Assembly: GCA_016699425.1 (NCBI GenBank) | Contig: CP064975.1 | Location: forward strand, 1,056,942 to 1,120,941 | Length of the DNA: 64,000 nt | Source of the DNA: Candidatus Moraniibacteriota bacterium | GTDB taxonomy: Bacteria > Patescibacteriota > Minisyncoccia > Moranbacterales > UBA1568 | Direction of reading: 5' to 3' | Shown here: positions 1-7,240 of the stretch, in pieces | How the letters are laid out: each line of letters opens with the position of its first letter | Position numbering within the stretch: the first letter of the stretch is position 1 | Notes under the pieces: generated by a model | The model's input: only the letters and a program-made list of their open reading frames with translations | The model's database searches: none | Told to the model about the DNA's origin: nothing | Position numbers and translations under genes: made by a program

Positions 1-69
1 CATCAGGATACCAATAACCCCAAAAGCAATTGAGGCACAAATAAATACTTTTGTGGCTATCTTTTGCAT
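1..69 (-). CDS. 5' end of a gene running off the window start; hydrophobic N-terminus (MQKIATKVFICASIAFGVIGIL...)
   Basis: ATG at 69-67 on the minus strand opens a hydrophobic reading frame that continues past position 1. Only 23 codons are visible. Confidence 0.3.
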   Translation of the reverse strand, partial: MQKIATKVFICASIAFGVIGILM

Positions 70-103
70 GGCTCCATTATACACCTAACAAAAAACTCTT
101 CTC

Positions 104-151
104 TTGGGCCTCTTTTTTGAAATTGAGCTGGCTGGTACACACGGTTAGAAC
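104..151. repeat. copy A of a ~35-bp motif (TTTTTGARATTGAGCTGGCTRGTACASACGGTTAGAAC) found at the 3' end of minus-strand genes
   Basis: Near-identical to 996-1037 (3 mismatches). Both copies lie just downstream of the stop of a minus-strand ORF. Confidence 0.6.
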
Positions 152-226
152 TTTTTACCTCAAAAGGGTGTAGTTTAAGGAAAATAAAAAATGGCCCGTA
201 CACATCGCGTGTGCACGGACCAAGGA

Positions 227-541
227 TTAGCGACTCTTCGACGGGTAGAAGTCAATCATGACGCGCTCAAATCGCACGCCGTTGATCAAGATATACCCAG
301 CAAAGAGGCTGAGGGCGGAGTATGGCATTTTGGGCGCCATATCCACCATACATGTGGTCATTTCTCCTTCTTCGGTATGGAGGGTAAGTTCGCCATCGGT
401 GGTGTACCGAAACGAATAGACCTGCAAGCGGCCGGTGTCCATTTGCTTCGGCAGTCCTCGGGTTCTCACAGAAACCCACATCTTTTCGCTGCCGACGAAG
501 TACACCCGACGAATCGCCTTATTGATTGACTCCTGTTTCAT
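227..541 (-). CDS. hypothetical protein (104 aa)
   Basis: Minus-strand ORF with GAGGA 7 nt upstream of the ATG and balanced amino-acid composition. Preferred over the overlapping plus-strand ORF 191..529. Confidence 0.5.
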   Translation of the reverse strand: MKQESINKAIRRVYFVGSEKMWVSVRTRGLPKQMDTGRLQVYSFRYTTDGELTLHTEEGEMTTCMVDMAPKMPYSALSLFAGYILINGVRFERVMIDFYPSKSR

Positions 542-725
542 GATTGAATCCTCATAGGAAAAGTGGGCGTCGATACGCCAACACTTATTTGCCCACGAGA
601 ATCAACCGAGGTTGATGAGAAGTTGAGTGCTGACGGAGAGTGTCAGCGGCATAAATGCCAATGCATACTAGCTACCTCCAGTTAGTTGTGAACGAACTGA
701 GCATAATAGCATATTTTTATAAATT

Positions 726-945
726 TGTCCACCCTTAGTTCGACTCCGTTTAGGGGTAATAAAAAACAAGGCTCTGGTGAGCCTTGTTATTAGCTGAGCG
801 GGTAACGGGAGTTCCGCATCGTTCATTCGCCGTCACTCATTCACTCTTTGCCCGGGGTGGCGCCAAATGCTCATTTGTTCGCATCCGTCGACACTCGTCA
901 TCGTTTCCTTCCTGCTGAAAGGAAACTCGTCTTGTTCCCACCCGT
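726..945. repeat. left copy of a 220-bp direct repeat bounding the AT-rich island; contains a 19-nt copy of the tRNA-Gly 3' end (801-819)
   Basis: Positions 788-945 are 100% identical to 5332-5489 (158 bp). Positions 726-787 are ~75% identical to 5270-5331. The embedded CTGAGCGGGTAACGGGAGT equals the 3' 19 nt of the tRNA-Gly gene at 5493-5564. Confidence 0.85.
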
Positions 946-970
946 TCGACTCCCTATCAACCCAAGAAAT

Positions 971-1006
971 AAAACAAGCGCCCGATCGGACGCTTGTTTT
1001 ATTTTT
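971..1006 (-). terminator. rho-independent terminator-like hairpin downstream of the DUF4238 gene
   Basis: AAAACAAGCG/CGCTTGTTTT 10-bp stem with U-rich flanks on both strands. Confidence 0.5.
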
Positions 1007-1037
1007 GAGCTGGCTAGTACAGACGGTTAGAACCAGC
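996..1037. repeat. copy B of the ~35-bp gene-3'-end motif (see 104-151)
   Basis: GAGCTGGCTAGTACAGACGGTTAGAACC, directly downstream of the DUF4238 gene stop. Confidence 0.6.
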
Positions 1038-1066
1038 ATCTCTGATTAATATCGCTTTTTCTTCTG

Positions 1067-2194
1067 TCACTGGATTTTCCAATATGAGTCAATTGGAGCT
1101 TCAATGGCCTTAGCGCCTCGAATGACATATCTCTCATAGTTTTTATTATCAATTTGAACAAATGGGTATGGTCCTTGAAATGTTGCTACTAAACTGTTCC
1201 ACCAGGCACTATAGTAGTAGTGACACTTTTTATACTTTTCACCGCTTCCACATAAACACAAGTCATTTCTACCACACGTAAAGTATTCTGGTGTTACATG
1301 ATGCTTGAATGATTTCCAGAAACGCTTATCTTGTTCGTACCAAAACACTTCTTTTTTTCGAGTAAAGCTCCAGTCTTTGGAAAAAACTTCTGAAGGAAAA
1401 CTCGTTTGAAACACTAACTTTGATTTCTCGCACACAGATTTTTTCTTTCCTAAGCACTTCCTATACGAAGAATTAACAATCACAGCATTTATTGCCTGAA
1501 GTGCCTCTCCATGTACATCATTTATACTATTTTCAACAAAAATATCATTTGTATCCGTATTCCAAAGAACAAAGTAATACTCCGAACTAATCGGAATCAG
1601 AATAACAGTTTCCCTAAGACCAATATTTCTATTTGACACTTGTACAAGCTGACTCTTAACACCTAAAGCAGCTGTAGAAATATACTGATCACTTAAAAGA
1701 AACTCTCCCTCAAGACTTCTTATTATAGCGGTTTTATAGCATGCATTAACCGTTTCTGCTAATAACTCAATGTAGGATTCGTCTAAAATATTTTTTAAAA
1801 GAAGGGCTATCTTATGTTCAGAATCCCTAAAAGAGAACTCGGTCAATAAAGCGTTACTTCTATAGTAGTTCTTAATAAAAAGAGTCATATTCTCACTGAA
1901 CCAATTCTTTACCTCAGAAAACTCACTGGATCCAACTTCAAGACCTTGAATATACTCCAATGTTTTTTTAATAACTTCTGGCAATTTACTATCAACTTCG
2001 CGTCCTAGAAAGTTTTCAACAGCATTCGGTTCTAACTGAGCGTCCTCATAGACGTACATCTCACTCATTGCGTCATTAGGAGTCGTTGCATAGGAGTTGT
2101 TATTTTTCCCAACTAAAAACTCAAAAAATTTTCCGTCATTATCGATAAAGTGAGCAAGTAATTTACGGCTTATGTAATGCTGTTTTTTTACCAT
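1067..2194 (-). CDS. DUF4238-like protein with C-terminal SEC-C metal-binding motif (375 aa)
   Basis: N-terminal HYISRKLLAHF resembles the DUF4238 signature. C-terminal CLCGSGEKYKKCH matches the SEC-C CxCxSGxKxKxCH pattern. Very AT-rich coding sequence compared with flanking DNA. Ends in TGA. Confidence 0.55.
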   Translation of the reverse strand: MVKKQHYISRKLLAHFIDNDGKFFEFLVGKNNNSYATTPNDAMSEMYVYEDAQLEPNAVENFLGREVDSKLPEVIKKTLEYIQGLEVGSSEFSEVKNWFSENMTLFIKNYYRSNALLTEFSFRDSEHKIALLLKNILDESYIELLAETVNACYKTAIIRSLEGEFLLSDQYISTAALGVKSQLVQVSNRNIGLRETVILIPISSEYYFVLWNTDTNDIFVENSINDVHGEALQAINAVIVNSSYRKCLGKKKSVCEKSKLVFQTSFPSEVFSKDWSFTRKKEVFWYEQDKRFWKSFKHHVTPEYFTCGRNDLCLCGSGEKYKKCHYYYSAWWNSLVATFQGPYPFVQIDNKNYERYVIRGAKAIEAPIDSYWKIQ

Positions 2195-2336
2195 ATGTAA
2201 TACACACTAACTGAAACTCAGATAAATTAAGAGCCAGGAATTAAACCGCGTCATTTACCACGGGACACAGTATTTTTAAGTTTATAAGTAGAGCAATCCT
2301 TTCCTAGGCCCCTTCCTTGCTTTCTCGCTCCTGTGA

Positions 2337-2825
2337 CTAACTTTTAATAGATTCAACTCGTCTCTTAATGTAAGAGGTTTGTTTTCTATACGAAATCAAG
2401 AAAATCACAAGGAGAGAAGCAATTAAGATCCACCATTTGTAGTCTCCAAGAAATGGGACTTTGTAAGATAATAGTTCATACCCCCTCGCTGCCACTAATA
2501 ACACAATAGCCGATACAAACGTACGATACATGTTGTTTGTTTCCAAAAGCACATCAATTTTTGGGTCTTCCTTTGCAGCAATTATGAAGTCGTCATATTC
2601 GGCGAACTTTATGAAGCGTGTCCATCGTAGTAATGGCTCGACGATGAGTGAAGCAAACCTGCTCACGATGAGACCGACAAAGTAGTACACAAATGCAGCA
2701 ATAATCAGATTTTCGTATGTGAGAGAATACGGCGTGAGATGTTCCAGTGCTATAGAGAATAGGACGCCAGGAAATAGATAGTTAAACAGATTATAGGATG
2801 TGATTTTGTCTACGATTTTTTCCAT
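2337..2825 (-). CDS. hypothetical integral membrane protein (162 aa)
   Basis: Several hydrophobic stretches; AT-rich; part of the island. Confidence 0.5.
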   Translation of the reverse strand: MEKIVDKITSYNLFNYLFPGVLFSIALEHLTPYSLTYENLIIAAFVYYFVGLIVSRFASLIVEPLLRWTRFIKFAEYDDFIIAAKEDPKIDVLLETNNMYRTFVSAIVLLVAARGYELLSYKVPFLGDYKWWILIASLLVIFLISYRKQTSYIKRRVESIKS

Positions 2826-2831
2826 ATGGCA

Positions 2832-3884
2832 TTATACTTCCACTTCATTAAAGAACACTTCTGGAGTGAGAGGTCCCCATCCAGGACGCTGAGGTGCGTC
2901 TTCGCTCGGATGACAGATCGCCACTCCTTTTCGAGTAGAGCCCAGACTACAACCTCGTCGTATGAGCGCGTTCACCACCTTACGCGAAGGGTGCTTTGGG
3001 TCACCTTGTAACGGGCATGAAATGAATGCGGGAAGCGGCATAAGCCGATTCAATAAAGTTGGCCCAAGATTACGCTTGCTGCCATGATGCGGTACATCTA
3101 AGAAGTCGATTTTGTTCAACGAGACACCTCTTTCTTCAGCGAAGTCAATGGCTCGTCCAAGTCCTTCTTTACCCGCATCACCAGTGAACAAGAAGCGTTT
3201 CCCATCTACTACGAGCAGAAGTACGAGGCAGGAGTTATTCTCAGGACATGTATCGGGATAATCATCCGACAGGGTTTCGATGTGGAGCGCCTCGGCGACC
3301 CAGCTAACCGCCTCTTTCACGGCTCCGATGAATTGCTCTATTTTGTGCTCTTCTTTTACCTCTGGCGTTACACCAAAGTTGGCGAGTAGGAGTTGATAAT
3401 ACTCTTTGGTAGGACCAAGAACATACAGACCGTCATGTATTTCCTCGCCCGCAAACGGCTGAACAATCGGTATTCCTTTCTCGCTGGCAAGATCGGTAAG
3501 AGTGGAGAGTGTCCCAAGTGATTTCTCGAGATATTTTTTCAGCCCCTCCTGCGTTACTGTTGTGTTCGTCATCTTCTGAATAGTCTTTGTGTAGTCCCAA
3601 GGACAATGGACGATTAACTTGCCAACGGTTAGGCCCTCAAGAACTTCAGACAAGCCAGATATATGGTCATTGTGGAGATGCGAAGCAATAACGGCATCTA
3701 CGAAGAGTGTACCGTAATGCGTTTTGACATGTTCAACAAGCGCCTTGCCTGACTCTCTGGTTCCGCCATCTATGACGATGACGTGTTGTGTTTGTGGAGA
3801 GCTAAAGTCTCCGTACCGAATTGCAATCGCGTCTCCTCCTTTTTTTCCAACCCCTACGGGAATGTAATCTACTTGGTGTGCCAT
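2832..3884 (-). CDS. metallo-beta-lactamase-fold hydrolase (350 aa)
   Basis: HLHNDH (HxHxDH) zinc-binding motif followed downstream by conserved Asp/His residues. Confidence 0.65.
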   Translation of the reverse strand: MAHQVDYIPVGVGKKGGDAIAIRYGDFSSPQTQHVIVIDGGTRESGKALVEHVKTHYGTLFVDAVIASHLHNDHISGLSEVLEGLTVGKLIVHCPWDYTKTIQKMTNTTVTQEGLKKYLEKSLGTLSTLTDLASEKGIPIVQPFAGEEIHDGLYVLGPTKEYYQLLLANFGVTPEVKEEHKIEQFIGAVKEAVSWVAEALHIETLSDDYPDTCPENNSCLVLLLVVDGKRFLFTGDAGKEGLGRAIDFAEERGVSLNKIDFLDVPHHGSKRNLGPTLLNRLMPLPAFISCPLQGDPKHPSRKVVNALIRRGCSLGSTRKGVAICHPSEDAPQRPGWGPLTPEVFFNEVEV

Positions 3885-4041
3885 ACTGCCGCAATAAATT
3901 ATTACTCTGCCACATTAAAGGAAGGGCAGAAATTCCTTTATTGTCCTCTATGGTACGCTTCTTTCTGAAGAAGTCAATAGTAAAAGTGTCAACAAACTGT
4001 CAACTATTGCATTTTGAGGGAATTTATCCTAGTATGGATTC

Positions 4042-4737
4042 ATGGAACACCCTCTTCAAAACAAGCTCCTAGAGCTTTCCCAGCGATACGATCTTAGCCA
4101 GATGGGTCTCCGAGAAATCGGCCGACTCGTAGGAGAAGAACATCCTCAAAAAATCAAATTCCATTTGCGGAAGATCGGGCTTCTGGGAACAGGAAAGCGC
4201 CCCAGACCGAAAAAGAGTCACAGAGTGACAATTCCCCTCTCTCAGAACAAAAAGATTCTTTCAATACCTATTCTTGGGGCAGCAAACTGTGGAGAAGCAA
4301 CAACCCTGGCTGAAGCAAGATTAGATGGGATTTTGCCCGTATCAAGAAAATTAATCCCTGCTCCCCATAGGGACAGAGAATTGTTCGCCGTAAAGGCTTC
4401 TGGGAAATCAATGAATCGTGCAGATTTAGACGGGAAGAGTATTGAGGACGGTGATTTTGTCATAGTCGATAGGGAAGAGATAGATGTAAAAAACGGTGAC
4501 TATGTCCTTTCCATAATTGGTGGTCTCGCTAATATCAAAAAGTACTTTGAAGACAAAGAGCATGATCAAATTGTCTTAGAATCAGAGTCTACGAACTTCT
4601 TTCCTCCTATACATATTCACAGAGAGGACCTGGACAATTACTTTTTAAATGGAAAGGTAGTAAGTGTTATAAAAGCAAGAAAGAAAGTTGAGGAAGAGTA
4701 CTCCGTTGAACCCATACCCAGTTGGGACAACTACTGA
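4042..4737 (+). CDS. LexA/phage CI-like repressor, S24 peptidase family (231 aa)
   Basis: N-terminal LexA-type winged HTH. C-terminal VKASGKSMNRADLDGKSIEDGDFVIVD matches the S24 pattern GDSM..GD..V.D (Ser nucleophile), and a downstream KKY motif supplies the catalytic Lys. Confidence 0.65.
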   Translation: MEHPLQNKLLELSQRYDLSQMGLREIGRLVGEEHPQKIKFHLRKIGLLGTGKRPRPKKSHRVTIPLSQNKKILSIPILGAANCGEATTLAEARLDGILPVSRKLIPAPHRDRELFAVKASGKSMNRADLDGKSIEDGDFVIVDREEIDVKNGDYVLSIIGGLANIKKYFEDKEHDQIVLESESTNFFPPIHIHREDLDNYFLNGKVVSVIKARKKVEEEYSVEPIPSWDNY

Positions 4738-4925
4738 CCTAAAAATTCACCTCTGGACTTGTCCTGGCACGGCCGAGGGATTCAGAATTAGAAAAGTCTA
4801 AAAAGTATACATCCAATCAAAAGTGGCTCCTCTGGGGTCGTTTTTTGATGTCCTGAACTTGTTTTATGTAAATAAAAAAGGCCGTTTCCCGTTCGGGGCG
4901 TACCTCAATCAACCGAATGAAGGAT

Positions 4926-5210
4926 TCAATGTGGATCTGGTTTCAGTCCCTTGATGTACGCAAACCGACGACGTAGCCATCCATCAAGATTCGCCTTCTG
5001 AAGACCGACAGCGTTGCTAACATCCTTCAGCCTCGGATTTGGTCCCGCAACGAGAATCCTCTCGGGAAATGGTACATTAGGAACTCGTCCGAAGTGTCGA
5101 TAATACCCCCAGAAATTCTTATGAAGCGGATACTTCTCGGGGTCGTGAACATTGAGGGCCACAGCCTGATAGATCACAGGCCACCAGTCATGCCAGTCAC
5201 CAGAAATCAT
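4926..5210 (-). CDS. hypothetical protein (94 aa)
   Basis: ORF only; no recognisable motif. Lies at the right edge of the island. Confidence 0.35.
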   Translation of the reverse strand: MISGDWHDWWPVIYQAVALNVHDPEKYPLHKNFWGYYRHFGRVPNVPFPERILVAGPNPRLKDVSNAVGLQKANLDGWLRRRFAYIKGLKPDPH

Positions 5211-5269
5211 GTCATTACTCCTCAGAGGTTTCGTTGAATGACAGTATAAACTACCAAAACTTTAAAGTC

Positions 5270-5489
5270 TTGTCCACCCCTAGTTCGAACGCCCGCCTTG
5301 GGTAAATAATTAAGGCTCGGGTGAGCCTTGATATTAGCTGAGCGGGTAACGGGAGTTCCGCATCGTTCATTCGCCGTCACTCATTCACTCTTTGCCCGGG
5401 GTGGCGCCAAATGCTCATTTGTTCGCATCCGTCGACACTCGTCATCGTTTCCTTCCTGCTGAAAGGAAACTCGTCTTGTTCCCACCCGT
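5270..5489. repeat. right copy of the 220-bp direct repeat; contains a 19-nt tRNA-Gly 3'-end duplicate (5337-5355) and directly abuts the intact tRNA-Gly
   Basis: See 726-945. A hairpin GTTTCCTT/AAGGAAAC lies at 5452-5479. Confidence 0.85.
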
Positions 5490-5492
5490 CTG

Positions 5493-5564
5493 AGCGGGTA
5501 ACGGGAGTCGAACCCGTATCTTGACCTTGGCAAGGTCACATAATAGCCGCTATACGATACCCGC
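5493..5564 (-). tRNA. tRNA-Gly (anticodon GCC)
   Basis: The reverse complement folds as GCGGGTA acceptor, anticodon stem-loop GACC-TTGCCAA-GGTC, GGGTTCGACTCCC T-arm and TACCCGC acceptor 3' strand. Confidence 0.85.
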
Positions 5565-5642
5565 CTACGGCGGGCAGGCCCGCTTTGGCTTTTTTCTGTC
5601 TCACGGACTACTCTAACGCAAAACCTGGCACTCGACAACCTG

Positions 5643-5715
5643 TGGGACTGGATGGATTCGAACCATCGACCAAGCGGTTATGAGCCGCCTGCTCTAACCG
5701 CTGAGCTACAGTCCC
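5643..5715 (-). tRNA. tRNA-Met (anticodon CAT), elongator type; could instead be tRNA-Ile2
   Basis: GGGACTG-TA-GCTCAGCGGTTAGAGC; anticodon loop CTCATAA; T-arm GATGGTTCGAATCCATC; acceptor CAGTCCC-A. The anticodon stem lacks the three G-C pairs of an initiator tRNA. Confidence 0.8.
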
Positions 5716-5741
5716 AGGCGGGAGAATGGGATGAAACCCGG

Positions 5742-5813
5742 TGCCGGGGGGCAGAATTGAACTGCCGACGCAAGGATTTTCAGTCCTTCGCTCTACCACT
5801 GAGCTACCCCGGC
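5742..5813 (-). tRNA. tRNA-Phe (anticodon GAA)
   Basis: GCCGGGG-TA-GCTCAGTGGTAGAGC; anticodon loop CTGAAAA; T-arm GGCAGTTCAATTCTGCC; acceptor CCCCGGC-A. Confidence 0.85.
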
Positions 5814-5882
5814 GAAACATAACTATTATCCCGGAACTACCGAAAAAAGCAATCTTTTTTGCTCTGACTGCCGGCTTTCCGG

Positions 5883-5952
5883 TGGTGGGCAGTAGAGGAC
5901 ACTCGAACCTGTGACCCCCTCGGCTCGCCACGTACCAAAATGACTTGCCTGT
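5883..5952 (-). pseudogene. tRNA-like 3' fragment (degenerate T-arm, acceptor 3' strand ACTGCCC-A-CCA)
   Basis: Reverse complement ends ...ACAGG-TTCGAGTGT-CCTCT-ACTGCCC-A-CCA. There is no anticodon arm. It shares a TTTGGTACG-GGCG-GAGCC block with the 5' fragment at 6044-6114. Confidence 0.5.
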
Positions 5953-6025
5953 GGACGATGCTGGACTCGAACCAGCGGCCCTCTCGGTGTAAACGAGATG
6001 CTCTAACCAACTGAGCTAATCGTCC
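5953..6025 (-). tRNA. tRNA-Val (anticodon TAC)
   Basis: GGACGAT-TA-GCTCAGTTGGTTAGAGC; anticodon stem-loop TCTCG-TTTACAC-CGAGA; T-arm GCTGGTTCGAGTCCAGC; acceptor ATCGTCC-A. Confidence 0.85.
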
Positions 6026-6043
6026 GATTTTAGTACGGGGTGA

Positions 6044-6114
6044 ATAAGCGAGGGCTCCCCGCCCGTACCAAACGGTACGTTCGGGCGGGTAACCAACTGA
6101 GCTAACTGCCCGTC
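6044..6114 (-). pseudogene. tRNA-like 5' fragment (GGGCAGT-TA-GCTC-AGTTGGTTA) with a 32-nt hairpin inserted in the D-loop and no anticodon arm
   Basis: Acceptor 5' strand GGGCAGT is complementary to the ACTGCCC of the 3' fragment at 5883-5952. The inserted hairpin is CCCGCCCGAACGTACC-GTTT-GGTACGGGCGGG. Confidence 0.5.
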
Positions 6115-6180
6115 TCACTATCGTACCGAGGGTCTTCCAAAAAAGAAAGCTGGTCAACCAAGTACCAGCCTTCTTCCATT

Positions 6181-6250
6181 GTGCCCAAGAGAGGACTCGG
6201 TCACGAATAATTTCCAAGGAAATTTTCTCGACCCCACCTCGCGGTCTGCT
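6181..6250 (-). pseudogene. duplicated tRNA-Leu 3' end (19 nt, 6181-6199) followed by a hairpin-bearing insert
   Basis: GTGCCCAAGAGAGGACTCG is identical to 6337-6355 (the 3' end of the intact tRNA-Leu). The adjoining sequence has an AATTTCC/GGAAATT hairpin where the T-loop would be. Confidence 0.6.
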
Positions 6251-6337
6251 TTTGCAGACATCGCTCCGGTTTTCTCCTCCTCACACAAGCCAAGCAGTTG
6301 GCTTGTTCCTTGTTCTCAAACTCACTCCGTTCCTTTG

Positions 6338-6421
6338 TGCCCAAGAGAGGACTCGAACCTCCAATCCCTTGCGGGAACTAGCACCTCAAGCTAGCGCGTA
6401 TACCAATTCCGCCACCTGGGC
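6338..6421 (-). tRNA. tRNA-Leu (anticodon GAG), long variable arm
   Basis: GCCCAGG-TG-GCGG-AATTGGTAT-ACGC; anticodon stem-loop CTAGC-TTGAGGT-GCTAG; variable arm TTCCCGCAAGGGAT; T-arm TGGAGGTTCGAGTCCTCT; acceptor CTTGGGC-A. Confidence 0.85.
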
Positions 6422-6426
6422 ATATT

Positions 6427-6666
6427 CTACAGGGACTTCAAAAACTCTCTTCCGACTCCTGACTTAAGATACTTTTCGAATTCTCTTGCTTCGCCTCGCG
6501 TTTGAAATTCTCTGGTGTAGAAAACTTCAAATGGGATACGACTACGATTTGAGGATGTCTTTCCTGCGTTGTGCTGATCAAGTCTCTTTTGTACATCGAA
6601 TGACATCCCAATGTACAAAAAACCATCTTTTTTACTTCTCAGAGCGTAGACAAAATAATTCTTCAT
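6427..6666 (-). CDS. small stand-alone GIY-YIG nuclease-domain protein (79 aa)
   Basis: N-terminal YFVYALRSKKDGFLYIGMSFDVQKRLDQHN fits the GIY-YIG motif with the conserved Arg and His/Asn. Its stop is 5 nt upstream of the tRNA-Leu 5' end. Confidence 0.75.
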   Translation of the reverse strand: MKNYFVYALRSKKDGFLYIGMSFDVQKRLDQHNAGKTSSNRSRIPFEVFYTREFQTRGEAREFEKYLKSGVGREFLKSL

Positions 6667-6679
6667 AACACAGTGACGC

Positions 6680-6753
6680 GCTAGCGCGTATACCCCTGCC
6701 TGCCGGCAGTGTCAGGCCTGTCTACCGACAGGTAGAAATTCCGCCACCTGGGC
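6680..6753 (-). pseudogene. truncated 5' copy of tRNA-Leu (positions 1 to ~31) with a 42-nt palindromic insertion in the D-loop
   Basis: GCCCAGGTGGCGGAATT-[TCTACCTGTCGGTAGACAGGCCTGACACTGCCGGCAGGCAGG]-GGTATACGCGCTAGC, then it diverges. It lies immediately upstream of the GIY-YIG start codon. Confidence 0.7.
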
Positions 6754-6775
6754 ATCTAGCACGGGAACTGCATCG

Positions 6776-7240
6776 TTATTCTGACTTCGCTTCCGTCGGC
6801 GTTTCTTCTGCGCTTGCTGTAGCGGCTGCCTGTACTTCTTTCACGACGTCCTGCACATCCTGGCCCGCCTTGCCGATTTCGAACGGGACCTCTTTCAATT
6901 TCTTGCCGATGACCTTAGCACTCTTGGTCCGGACAAAATACAGTTTACCACGACGGGCTTTGGTCCGCTTCATAAGTTCAATCGACTCCACCTGCGAGGA
7001 AAGCAGTGGGAAAATGATTTCGACACCAATACCGGAAGAGACCTTGCGGACAGTCACGGTCTGAGATGAGCTCTGGCCACCCTTGATCGCGATGACCATA
7101 CCCTGGAACATCTGAATACGAGTCTTCTCGCCTTCCTTGATCTTGCGACGCACCTTCACCACGTCTCCGGCTTGGAGCTCAGGGAGATCAGTCCGCGCGG
7201 CGCGAAGGTTGTTGTTGAATTCGACGAGTTTCTGGTGCAT
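6776..7240 (-). CDS. rplS: 50S ribosomal protein L19 with an acidic C-terminal extension
   Basis: GDVVKVRRKIKEGEKTRIQMFQGMVIAIKGG matches the L19 core. Confidence 0.85.
   Translation of the reverse strand: MHQKLVEFNNNLRAARTDLPELQAGDVVKVRRKIKEGEKTRIQMFQGMVIAIKGGQSSSQTVTVRKVSSGIGVEIIFPLLSSQVESIELMKRTKARRGKLYFVRTKSAKVIGKKLKEVPFEIGKAGQDVQDVVKEVQAAATASAEETPTEAKSE

Follow-up and report, generated by a model that had tools for sequence, protein, structure and literature searches.

A strain-variable block of probable anti-phage genes, probably part of a stack of small inserted modules downstream of tRNA-Gly in Candidatus Moraniibacteriota

How does a block of accessory genes come to lie against an intact tRNA gene, next to long repeats that each carry a copy of the tRNA end, in a region with no recombinase gene? 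The host is a member of Candidatus Moraniibacteriota (CPR, ultra-small), and the window analysed here is a 64-kb stretch of its ~1.2-Mb genome. In the initial annotation, the DNA between the repeats was taken to be a single integrated island with the repeats as its bounds. We conclude that the inserted DNA is a different segment, 1006–5489, and that it is a non-autonomous or decayed cassette within a tRNA-anchored array.

Modules and joints downstream of tRNA-Gly

The tRNA-Gly gene is the final gene of a Leu-Val-Phe-Met-Gly cluster, and its sequence ends in CCCGCTC/AG, where the slash marks the point at which modules are joined. The features of the array are listed below from the tRNA outward; related loci are referred to by number.

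5492–5564, minus strand: tRNA-Gly(GCC) (ARAGORN; Rfam 59.4 bits; identical in relatives)
5490–5508, on the plus strand: c3, the anchoring recombination site, which is the tRNA-Gly 3' end
5357–5489, minus strand: unit X, tRNA-proximal copy, 133 nt, 100% identical to 813–945; non-coding, with predicted hairpins
5338–5356, minus strand: c2, the final 19 nt of tRNA-Gly repeated in the same sense, with the GCTC/AG core at its end; joins unit X to the cargo cassette
5270–5337, minus strand: Y, head of cargo cassette A, with a terminator-like hairpin (5329 to 5312) and a -35-like box, GGGGTGGACAA, upstream of ORF94
4926–5210, minus strand: ORF94, 94 aa (ORF list)
4042–4737, plus strand: LexA/CI-like S24 autopeptidase repressor (Pfam PF00717 Peptidase_S24, 9e-15), divergent from the MBL gene
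2832–3884, minus strand: MBL-fold hydrolase, PDC-M48B (Lactamase_B 3e-11; PADLOC PDLC04676 3e-78)
2337–2825, minus strand: membrane protein PDC-M48A (TM), 162 aa, hydrophobic, with ~4 transmembrane segments (PADLOC PDLC04670 2.7e-62; phrog_11864 2e-34)
1067–2194, minus strand: DUF4238 protein with a C-terminal SEC-C zinc motif (Pfam DUF4238 2.8e-15, SEC-C 9e-9)
1006–1033, minus strand: frag, GTTCTAACCGTCTGTACTAGCCAGCTCA, a degenerate form of the tRNA-Gly 3' end, lengthened by a 5-nt insertion and ending in GCTC/A; attR-like distal junction of the 4.5-kb insert
946–1005, minus strand: hp1 (terminator hairpin AAAACAAGCGTCCGATCGGGCGCTTGTTTT) and 5'U (TTGGGTTGATAGGGAGTCGA), start of the older module
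813–945, minus strand: unit X, distal copy, 100% identical to 5357–5489
794–812, minus strand: c1, second displaced copy of the tRNA-Gly 3' end (exact-copy search and junction table)
703–793, minus strand: Y', head of cargo cassette B, with an intrinsic terminator (788 to 765) plus T-run and a promoter, TGGACA-17-TATTAT (731 to 703)
227–541, minus strand: ORF104, 104 aa, cargo of cassette B (ORF list)
124–151, minus strand: distal frag, closing the variable array as a whole; beyond it lie a hairpin and a conserved membrane-protein gene (69 to 1)

The repeats themselves are as first described. Positions 788–945 and 5332–5489 are 100% identical, and the further similarity reported to their left extends the pair to 761–945 and 5305–5489 at 97% (five mismatches in 761–787, with 726–760 more diverged and carrying one indel). 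The claimed copies of the tRNA end are equally real: the 19-nt sequence CTGAGCGGGTAACGGGAGT occurs exactly three times in the 64 kb, at 794, 5338 and 5490, the third being the 3' end of tRNA-Gly that abuts the right repeat, and chance copies were found in 0 of 100 shuffles.

What did not hold is the meaning given to the repeats. The left repeat is not an outer edge of the insert, but belongs to an older neighbouring cassette (152–1005) that lies beyond it and carries ORF104. Nor are the 220-bp repeats the attL/attR pair of one element; each holds a copy of a self-contained 152-nt module, X plus a tRNA-end copy, that is found also in L003, L011 and L031. A profile of X matches the proximal copy (5490–5338) with E = 4.5e-55, and further matches lie at 968–794 in the window and in the same three relatives. 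The X-c segment differs by 7–11% between genomes, yet its two copies in the window match at all of 158 bp, which marks the duplication as a recent, local event.

The distal junction of the insert is instead the frag at 1006–1033, which is 93% identical to 124–151 and has counterparts at cassette ends in L001, L003, L011, L021 and L031. The region downstream of tRNA-Gly is a lineage-wide modular array in which units alternate with cargo cassettes. A unit consists of ~150 nt of non-coding DNA, X or Z, with a copy of the tRNA 3' end (c) as its 3' limit, and a cargo cassette carries a terminator and promoter (Y) at its head and the degenerate tRNA-end site at its tail. Y (5270–5337) and Y' (726–793) are about 75% similar, and Y modules homologous to Y' are present in L001, L003, L021 and L031. 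The insert contains one X-c unit and one cargo cassette (ORF94, S24, PDC-M48 B and A, DUF4238–SEC-C and frag). On the conserved outer side of the array, window positions 151 to 1 align with L001 15118–15264, frag and membrane-protein gene included.

Every module joint in our junction table falls at GCTC/. The left half-site at a joint is supplied by the tRNA itself, by a perfect 19-nt copy (c) or by the degenerate frag, and the right-hand sequences hp1, hpZ, Y and the GGCAATCAAG hairpin recur behind different left halves (tRNA, c, frag, frag') with the joint fixed. Module halves reassorted in this way about one constant position are consistent with site-specific recombination. Compared with the tRNA half-site, frag has 5 extra nt, which we take to be the attP-versus-attB geometry of serine integrases.

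The site in related genomes

Moraniibacteriota relatives share the genes for RluD and L19 and the cluster of five tRNAs, and the island genes are absent at this position from L011 and five others, so that a core region is not supported. L011 is 96.4% identical to the window over 3.5 kb of flanking genes and lacks the island. In L011 and L003, GCTC/ at the end of tRNA-Gly is followed by AAAAATAAAAC (hp1), 5'U, X and c. In the window, hp1 comes after frag (1006–1033) and not after the tRNA, and 1006–5489 is therefore exactly the extra DNA. The hp1–5'U segment has its homologue immediately behind tRNA-Gly in L003, L011 and L017, the last of which is a bare site, where a tRNA-Gly with encoded CCA is followed by hp1 and a promoter, with no unit; L001, L021 and L027 carry other cargo. 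The L011 sequence resembles the window on one side of a group I intron in tRNA-Phe and L003 on the other, and its contig could come from a chimeric MAG; the unoccupied arrangement is seen independently in L003. Of the claim of an integrated element, what survives is accessory DNA inserted at a tRNA 3' end, and what gives way is the single island, replaced by a multi-module array common to the lineage.

The assemblies of relatives often break at the tRNA cluster, as is expected of a population-variable, repeat-rich site.

Origin of the cassette

As first noted, the island yielded no recombinase, and neither did the rest of the 64-kb window. A 19-nt att core would have implied a tyrosine integrase; the short GCTC(A) common core and the recombinase present at this site in L031 indicate a large serine recombinase instead. 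At the same locus in L031, a 589-aa large serine recombinase (Resolvase, Recombinase and Zn_ribbon_recom) abuts tRNA-Gly, with its stop codon inside the GCTCA of the tRNA. The attP reconstructed for L031 is a strong inverted repeat, with a score reached by 0 of 1000 shuffles. At the window's own junctions (frag against X-start, hp1 or Y-start), dyad-symmetry scores are only weak and attP symmetry is not demonstrable. L031 also carries a homologous S24–MBL–TM trio between 253-bp perfect direct repeats that hold Z and c (71%, 89% and 79% amino acid identity to the window, respectively; 75.8% nucleotide identity over 2.5 kb). These repeats have sharp edges on both sides, the left one being the att core. 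ORF94 is absent from the L031 version of the island, and the DUF4238 gene is absent from the L031 and L033 versions.

The explanation that we favour, and regard as reasonably probable, is that the 3' side of tRNA-Gly(GCC) served as a landing pad on which small modules were stacked one by one, joined at GCTC/A, the very 3' end of the tRNA. The newest insert, 1006–5489, with its probably anti-phage cargo, would have entered between tRNA-Gly and a resident module starting with hp1–5'U–X–c1, and X-c would be present twice because an insert carrying X-c was placed beside the resident copy. The enzyme would most likely have been a large serine recombinase that either acted in trans or was lost afterwards. 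This explanation also carries costs. The proximal X abuts the tRNA directly, without the hp1–5'U found before X elsewhere, so a 63-nt deletion or a different P' arm has to be assumed; and since the repeats are 100% identical, it requires either a donor and recipient with identical X-c or later gene conversion.

It is unlikely, but worth weighing, that the block is what remains of a formerly autonomous serine-recombinase element whose own recombinase was deleted, bringing X against the tRNA and leaving immobile debris with its cargo kept by selection. In both L031 and L033, a recombinase gene lies immediately beside a tRNA, where the window has its anomalous X–tRNA junction, and the L033 trio is 3.6 kb from its large serine recombinase, which overlaps the 3' end of tRNA-Ser. 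However, the L031 trio sits outside the recombinase-bearing module, in an older recombinase-less module with perfect repeats, which indicates that recombinase-less carriage is recurrent. A deletion precisely between the last base of the tRNA and the first base of X would also be a coincidence, unless it was itself site-specific.

Homologous recombination alone (Campbell-type insertion, unequal crossing-over or gene conversion between repeated X/Z-c-terminator modules), with DNA taken up by natural transformation, would account for the perfect repeats of 158 bp in the window and 253 bp in L031, which are the expected trace of a single crossover with a circle bearing that homology. Past c, Y and Y' are still 65–81% homologous, and species that share 77% identity in their flanking genes share 97% in segments of the tRNA cluster, which shows frequent homologous exchange there. 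We nevertheless consider this account improbable, because the boundaries lie at the same GCTC/ position whatever the partners, both repeat edges in L031 are sharp with the left one at the att core, and a serine recombinase with a proper attP is present at the site. Homologous recombination alone also cannot make the tRNA-end copies initially.

We doubt to much the same degree a proposal that is compatible with any explanation at the DNA level, namely that the X, Z and W units work as structured RNAs within the tRNA operon and are kept identical by selection. The tRNA-end copy would then serve the RNA, for example by pairing with the 5' part to close a stem or by imitating an acceptor end. The units are placed between two terminators, and in the RNAalifold structures both X and Z are closed by a stem between the 5' part and the 3' end derived from the tRNA, although this pairing may just reflect an inverted T-arm motif (GAGTCGAAC) present after each junction. 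In Z, two hairpins carry GNRA-type loops and there are four compensatory pairs (score reached by 2 of 500 shuffles), but this covariation all comes from one sequence. The W unit that follows tRNA-Leu is better folded than its shuffles (z = -2.6), its Val counterpart keeps hairpins through indels that break any reading frame, and X shows an A-T to G-C double change in one hairpin between the window and L011; yet X folds no better than shuffles on either strand (z = -1.0). The units have no Rfam match and no convincing promoter, and they are missing from some relatives (L017; L003 for Leu) and thus dispensable.

Several known systems resemble the array favoured here. As far as they are described in PMC4383910 and bioRxiv 10.1101/2020.12.28.424599, tRNA-anchored islands (Islander-type; Prochlorococcus tycheposons) share with it a tRNA regenerated at one end, displaced tRNA fragments as borders, newcomers that push older modules away from the tRNA while degenerate remnants stay, and adaptive or defensive cargo in streamlined genomes. 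Tyrosine recombinases are present in 910 of 937 tycheposon-type elements (bioRxiv 10.1101/2020.12.28.424599), whereas the sole recombinase seen at this tRNA-Gly site is the large serine recombinase of L031. The modules here are also unlike those islands in being mostly tiny (0.15–4.5 kb), without integrase or replication genes, and in having a common core of ~5 nt and a conserved ~150-nt non-coding unit that alternates with cargo.

The array has in common with serine-integrase elements the L031 large serine recombinase, a dyad-symmetric attP of ~50 bp and a very short core, and with SCCmec/ccr-like cassette chromosomes the accumulation of several cassettes at one chromosomal site. Unlike both, it targets a tRNA 3' end, and the window cassette has no recombinase. 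Streptococcal CIMEs are att-bounded elements without recombination genes that stand in tandem with related elements, with at least three att copies; they derive from tyrosine-integrase ICEs, are tens of kb long and are presumed to be acted on in trans by the integrase of a related element. They share with the window array att-like bounds, the lack of recombination genes of its own and tandem accretion, mobilisation in the window array being putative. Integron arrays and CALINs likewise have small gene cassettes, structured, imperfectly palindromic sites of ~150 nt, a fixed anchor and a recombinase that is mostly absent. Membership in that class was rejected, given that the array has no IntI, no attC R'/R'' consensus, its own promoters and terminators, and sites derived from a tRNA end.

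Cargo genes

The gene content first assigned to the block is borne out by Pfam for the DUF4238–SEC-C, MBL (Lactamase_B) and S24 proteins. AT-richness applies mainly to 1000–2800; the DUF4238 and TM genes have 35% and 38% GC and the insert 42.4% overall, but the MBL gene (48.6%) and ORF94 (50%) are near the window mean of 51.6%. ORF94 and ORF104 have no Pfam, PADLOC or PHROG match.

The suggestion of defence-like cargo is upheld by PADLOC matches to both PDC-M48 genes (2.7e-62 and 3e-78), with profiles covering these adjacent, co-oriented genes nearly full length, and by a DUF4238 family shown to act against T7. To our knowledge, PDC-M48 in PADLOC naming denotes a candidate system without experimental validation. 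The TM gene always adjoins the MBL gene in L031, L032 and L034. The MBL protein has many CPR homologues, with up to 89% identity, and weaker PADLOC matches to LmuA, RT-associated MBL and Avs1a models. The S24 protein matches a PHROG 'transcriptional repressor' family (3e-18). Its gene is divergent from the MBL gene in L031/L032, where the protein is 71% identical to that of the window, and also in L033/L034, there with a LexA_DNA_bind match. Each of the three contexts examined pairs PDC-M48 with a LexA-like S24 repressor. The S24 protein is a probable regulator of the PDC-M48 pair and the MBL hydrolase its probable effector. A derivation of the block from the immunity region of a prophage (CI-like repressor with superinfection-exclusion genes) is very improbable: the S24 protein matches phage repressor PHROGs and MBL and TM match PHROG families, but there are no structural, replication or lysis genes in or beside the block and no DNA or protein match in phage collections, and the same trio recurs in small non-phage modules.

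The DUF4238 gene is the most foreign-looking of the block. Its product, matched by Pfam DUF4238 over its full length, has a closest non-self homologue of 51% identity and no BLAST-level similarity to phage-borne proteins in INPHARED. A single DUF4238-domain protein protects E. coli against T7 experimentally (PMC9122126); unlike this Rst_DUF4238 single-gene defence, the protein here has an extra SEC-C zinc motif.

Judged from sequence, the cargo of the insert is most likely anti-phage. Going by family membership, the LexA-like S24 repressor would keep the TM/MBL pair off until it is cleaved via RecA-type signalling, and DUF4238–SEC-C would act as a separate single-protein defence. The locus is thus probably a strain-variable 4.5-kb block of probable anti-phage genes within a stack of small modules inserted after tRNA-Gly.

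The insert and its boundaries

The two direct repeats reported by the initial annotation, at 788-945 and 5332-5489, are indeed identical over 158 bp, and the pair extends to 761-945 and 5305-5489 at 97% identity, with weaker similarity as far as 726 and 5270. The window likewise has three copies of the tRNA end described there, CTGAGCGGGTAACGGGAGT (at 794, 5338 and 5490), and no shuffle gave a match. The copy at 5490 is the 3' end of tRNA-Gly(GCC) (5492-5564, minus strand), the final gene of a Leu-Val-Phe-Met-Gly cluster. This gene is intact (59.4 bits), a regenerated target tRNA at the end of the insert as is typical of an island, and is the same as those of relatives through GCTC, after which it reads AG versus AA or CA. 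Displaced tRNA 3' fragments lie in direct orientation, as exact 19-nt copies at 5338 and 794 and as degenerate versions (frag) at 1006-1033 and 124-151. The array is listed below with c denoting copies of the tRNA-Gly 3' end, X a ~150-nt non-coding unit, Y and Y' the heads of cargo cassettes, hp1 a terminator hairpin and 5'U the segment after it.

Array of the window, read in the sense of the tRNA (minus-strand reading order)
5564 to 5492: tRNA-Gly, whose own end is c3
5489 to 5357: X, followed by c2
Cassette A: Y, ORF94, S24, MBL, TM (a 162-aa membrane protein), DUF4238, and frag at 1033 to 1006
Resident module, distal of frag 1033 to 1006: hp1, 5'U, X at 945 to 813, c1
Cassette B: Y', ORF104, frag at 151 to 124
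Host DNA: a hairpin and a conserved membrane-protein gene

RluD, encoded next to the site, retrieves Candidatus Moraniibacteriota genomes that share the RluD-L19-tRNA cluster. The surroundings of tRNA-Gly were read in eight further genomes or contigs, with L001/L018, L002, L003, L011, L017, L021 and L027 retrieved through RluD and L031 through the MBL protein. L011 is 96.4% identical to the window across 3.5 kb of flanking genes and therefore represents the same or a sister species. The empty sites that the initial annotation proposed to look for exist: in both L003 and L011, tRNA-Gly is joined directly to hp1-5'U-X-c without 1006-5489, and the extra DNA of the window is therefore exactly 1006-5489 (4,484 bp), inserted between GCTC(A) of the tRNA and hp1. 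L017 is bare of array modules, its tRNA-Gly with an encoded CCA being followed by hp1, a promoter and ordinary genes. The L011 contig may be chimeric; L003 supplies the unoccupied arrangement independently. Many assemblies of relatives end exactly at this tRNA cluster, which is what a repeat-rich, population-variable site does in short-read assembly.

These alignments place the distal junction of the insert at frag, and not at the left 220-bp repeat that had been taken for the outer edge of the island. The left repeat is the head of an older resident module, and the right repeat is an X-c unit brought with, or copied into, the new insert. The membrane-protein gene beyond the distal frag is syntenic with L001. 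A perfect repeat maintained by purifying selection alone is ruled out, because a 166-nt segment comprising X, c and the adjoining hairpin is 7% diverged from its L003 and L011 counterparts, and a 146-nt stretch within it is 11% diverged from L031. Identity between the two copies of a sequence that diverges by 7-11% between genomes therefore reflects a recent, local event and not constraint alone. Past c, the similarity of Y to Y' drops to ~65-81%, as expected where c joins an identical unit to two different cargo cassettes. With att-type sites at both ends, no mobility genes and a tandem arrangement with a related element, the insert has the layout of a non-autonomous (cis-mobilizable) element in tandem accretion, for which excision and integration would be catalysed in trans.

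The structure in L031 parallels this tandem layout. A trio of S24, MBL and TM genes lies further along the L031 array than a recombinase gene, in the same orientation to the tRNA as in the window, and its products are 71%, 89% and 79% identical to the respective window proteins (75.8% at the nucleotide level over 2.5 kb). Genes for a Y-family polymerase, a UmuD-like protein and SRAP follow the trio, then frag, and the whole block lies between 253-bp perfect direct repeats made up of hpZ (another terminator hairpin), Z (another ~150-nt unit), c and a hairpin. Both edges of the repeat are sharp, the left one falling at the core between GCTC and AG. L031 is thus a second genome with the same picture, built on a different unit.

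Other features of the tRNA cluster are recorded here as separate observations. A functional tRNA-Val (5951-6025) lies between fragments of an older, L001-type tRNA-Val at 5887-5920 and 6090-6111 (minus strand; 5' and 3' fragments GGGCAGTTAGCTCAGTTGGTTA ... GGTTCGAGTGTCCTCTACTGCCCA), as though the central part of the old gene had been exchanged for a segment bringing the new tRNA-Val. The window (5740-6199) and L003 (11725-12182) share 97.4% identity across the Leu-to-Phe part of the cluster with its spacers, versus ~77% for the protein genes flanking the cluster, which suggests that the cluster was recently exchanged between species. A group I intron occupies the tRNA-Phe anticodon loop of L011 (3716-4014; Rfam RF00028, 65.5 bits, cut-off 50) and is absent from tRNA-Phe of the window and of L003. 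The similarity of L011 changes at this intron from window-like (96%) to L003-like (98%), the result of either intron-associated recombination or a chimeric contig. The tRNA-Met gene of L021 (10654-11418) is interrupted in its anticodon loop by ~610-640 nt of inserted DNA with a 214-aa ORF on the other strand; the insertion may be an intron encoding a homing endonuclease. Directly next to tRNA-Leu, the window (6427-6666, minus strand) encodes a 79-aa stand-alone GIY-YIG protein, which is kept in the same-species contigs L011 and L013-L015.

Modular joins and non-coding units

In tRNA-sense alignments, the DNA after tRNA-Gly is composed of recurring pieces. The left halves of the junctions all terminate in GCTC and consist of the tRNA, an exact or near-exact ~19-nt copy of its end (c), or a degenerate form carrying 5 inserted nt, which is either frag (GTTCTAACCG..TAC.AGCCAGCTC) or a second type, frag'. 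The right halves are a few types of terminator hairpin: hp1, hpZ, Y/Yb and the GGCAATCAAG hairpin. An inverted T-arm motif, GAGTCGAAC, follows the hp1- and Y-type hairpins in most junctions examined, and a -35-like box, GGGTGGACAA, precedes the cargo beyond the junction hairpin.

Table. Left halves found before each right half
hp1: after the tRNA in L003, L011 and L017; after frag in the window
hpZ: after the tRNA in L001; after frag' in L003, L011 and L031; after frag in L031
Y: after c in most genomes; after frag in L031 and L021
GGCAATCAAG hairpin: after the tRNA in L021; after c in L027

The join falls immediately after GCTC in every junction tabulated, and a GCTC(A) core is common to the tRNA, c and frag. 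Such reassortment at one fixed position is what site-specific recombination would be expected to leave. Two types of module can be distinguished: non-coding units of ~130-190 nt that terminate in c, and cargo cassettes that open with Y and a promoter and close with frag. Copies of X were found in the window (twice), L003, L011 and L031, and copies of Z in L001/L018, L003, L011, L021 (twice), L027 and L031 (twice). The inverted copy of the tRNA-Gly T arm lies ~55 nt downstream of the c1 junction, past the terminator hairpin (738-752 versus 5499-5513). Further copies follow junctions of the c or frag type in L001, L003, L017, L021 and L031, and the motif may act as a half-site or take part in RNA pairing.

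The pairing of a unit with the end of its own tRNA is not confined to tRNA-Gly. The structured, ~140-nt unit W follows tRNA-Leu(GAG) in the window (6336 to 6200, minus strand) and runs into 26 nt that duplicate the Leu 3' end (6199 to 6174); L003 lacks exactly these 156 nt within surrounding DNA that is 96-97% identical. A homologous W follows tRNA-Val in L001 (11901-12067) and terminates in the Val acceptor strand. The copy that closes a unit thus derives, in each case, from the tRNA upstream of it.

The units may be RNAs, or miniature non-autonomous elements consisting of hardly more than an att site, or both. They contain conserved hairpins, some with GNRA-type loops, and a few compensatory changes, and W folds better than its shuffles (z = -2.6). 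Against the RNA reading, X folds no better than shuffles (z = -1.0), the covariation in Z comes from one sequence, the units have no Rfam match and they are dispensable in some genomes. Rfam searches of 1-7000 and around a Z unit returned, beyond tRNAs, only sub-threshold matches at chance level.

Several narrower identities were rejected. The 5' part of X (GGGTTGATAGGGAGTCGAACGGG) resembles the 5' end of tmRNA; ARAGORN found no tmRNA, Rfam was likewise negative, and this identity is further ruled out by the homology of the segment to the GAGTCGAAC...GGGTGGACAA promoter region after the bare site of L017. A guide RNA or ωRNA, with a scaffold and the tRNA end as 3' guide, is contradicted by the lack of TnpB and IscB genes and of an Rfam match, and an attC site by the lack of an IntI gene and of the attC consensus. 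The frame of a small ORF in W is unconserved between the Leu and Val copies. The c+X junction, a 23-mer of X and the degenerate c+Y pattern gave 0 matches in public metagenome and viral contigs; the tRNA-Gly end had a single viral match, L010, which comes from an unrelated phage with a tRNA-like sequence.

Candidate recombinases

As the initial annotation stated, the island is recombinase-less: no Pfam recombinase domain was found in its five ORFs. The 64-kb window contains neither a tyrosine-recombinase motif nor a Resolvase + Recombinase + zinc-ribbon protein next to an att site, and tblastn with the serine recombinases of L031 and L033 (a further locus carrying the trio) gave no match in the 64 kb. 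At the same chromosomal locus in L031, a 589-aa large serine recombinase with Resolvase, Recombinase and zinc-ribbon domains adjoins tRNA-Gly, and its stop codon lies inside the GCTCA of the tRNA. The joined ends of the L031 element, AGTTCGGGGTAAGAAAGTCTC..CTCA..GAGTCGTTTCTACCCCGAACT, form an inverted repeat that was matched by 0 of 1000 shuffles and that has the form expected of a serine-integrase attP. The dyad symmetry of the window frag versus candidate P' arms is weak. A different large serine recombinase, overlapping the 3' end of tRNA-Ser, is encoded 3.6 kb from the trio in L033; the best candidate for the distal att site of this element is no better than shuffles (351/500).

The attB and attP sites of serine integrases share a short common core and differ in half-site spacing. 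The spacing from the GGTTC motif to the core is 5 nt longer in frag than in the tRNA, and by analogy this difference and the 5-nt core would fit such a geometry. If the recombinase and short sites behave as inferred, they would constitute a compact serine-integrase/att set from an unexplored lineage.

As a separate feature of L033, the last ~40 codons of the recombinase have an inverted copy directly upstream of the gene (~4199-4318 and 5726-5845, 95% identity), with the ~4199-4318 copy just downstream of the tRNA-Ser 3' end. The gene is therefore bracketed by ~120-nt inverted repeats and is possibly an invertible segment.

A more far-reaching proposal, which we consider unlikely, is that a large serine recombinase operates the tRNA-Gly site of Moraniibacteriota as an integron-like platform for gene capture, with modules freely inserted, excised and reshuffled at the 5-nt core. 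Its modules would be promoter-bearing cassettes ending in frag and ~150-nt structured units ending in an exact copy of the tRNA end. Where an arriving module starts like the resident one, as in L031, integration would regenerate attB-like and attP-like sites, and cassettes would then be able to move without an enzyme or directionality factor of their own. If the recombinase and short sites behave as inferred, they would constitute a compact serine-integrase/att set from an unexplored lineage.

Cargo and relation to known systems

The ORFs named by the initial annotation are all present in the insert.

Cargo genes of cassette A
1067-2194, minus: DUF4238 + SEC-C protein (Pfam)
2337-2825, minus: four-segment membrane protein, PDC-M48A (PADLOC)
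2832-3884, minus: MBL-fold protein, PDC-M48B (Pfam, PADLOC)
4042-4737, plus: S24 peptidase-type repressor (Pfam)
4926-5210, minus: 94-aa ORF (ORF list)

Their reported AT-richness is real but uneven across the genes, with GC contents of 35% (DUF4238), 38% (TM), 43% (S24), 49% (MBL) and 50% (ORF94) against a window mean of 51.6%. The DUF4238 gene, the most AT-rich of them, has no counterpart in the L031 and L033 versions and therefore looks like a later cassette addition.

The suggestion of defence-like cargo is borne out by the presence of the DUF4238 domain and by the two profiles of the PADLOC candidate defence system PDC-M48, which are matched almost end to end (PDC-M48A, 2.7e-62, positions 1-160/164; PDC-M48B, 3.1e-78, 5-356/357) by genes on the same strand 6 nt apart. 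PDC-M48 has no mention in the literature searched. The MBL protein also resembles the MBL-type effector modules of the Lamassu, DRT and Avs models in PADLOC, and has close CPR homologues in informative contexts. The DUF4238 protein matches PF14022 at 56.9 bits (cut-off 27, profile 1-280/281), additionally has a SEC-C zinc motif, through which alone it is matched by PADLOC, and is 51% identical to its best non-self relative; tblastn found no match to it among 50,697 phage records. A single DUF4238 protein conferred strong T7 resistance in E. coli (PMC9122126), and the family's single-protein defence (Rst_DUF4238) is represented by a validated P2-hotspot protein.

The S24 protein matches phage-type repressors. 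Its S24 domain spans residues 76-197, with a GKSM serine motif and a downstream KK visible in the sequence, and its N-terminal 75 residues have no Pfam match; the L033 version has a LexA DNA-binding domain (LexA_DNA_bind). The gene is divergent from the MBL gene in 3/3 contexts, and a RecA-sensitive S24 repressor would hold the membrane-protein/hydrolase pair in check. The genes after the trio in L031 (7328-9916; Y-family polymerase (IMS), UmuD-like S24 and SRAP) form a damage-tolerance set, a hint that DNA damage, no less than phage, may be what the trio responds to.

The window array is not a member of the integrons, prophages or tyrosine-integrase islands; it lacks the features that define these families. 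Unlike integrons and CALINs, its units have no RYYYAAC...GTTRRRY ends by inspection (W is without any GTT), and there is no tyrosine recombinase. Cis-mobilizable elements are known in tandem accretion and are a further analogue. The closest described analogues are tRNA-anchored islands built by serial integration, namely Islander-type islands (PMC4383910) and tycheposons (bioRxiv 10.1101/2020.12.28.424599), where borders are marked by displaced tRNA fragments and older elements are pushed inward by new arrivals. The present array differs from these analogues in its very small modules, nearly all without a recombinase, in a core and an enzyme of the serine-recombinase type, and in a conserved non-coding unit that alternates with cargo.

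Genomes of CPR/Patescibacteria are tiny, and descriptions of mobile elements or defence systems in them are scarce. At this locus, accessory genes, which are probably anti-phage, form a small pool open to exchange, kept at one site anchored by a tRNA and largely without the recombinase. PDC-M48 is common in CPR, and its association with a LexA-like regulator in 3/3 contexts examined provides a testable regulatory model.
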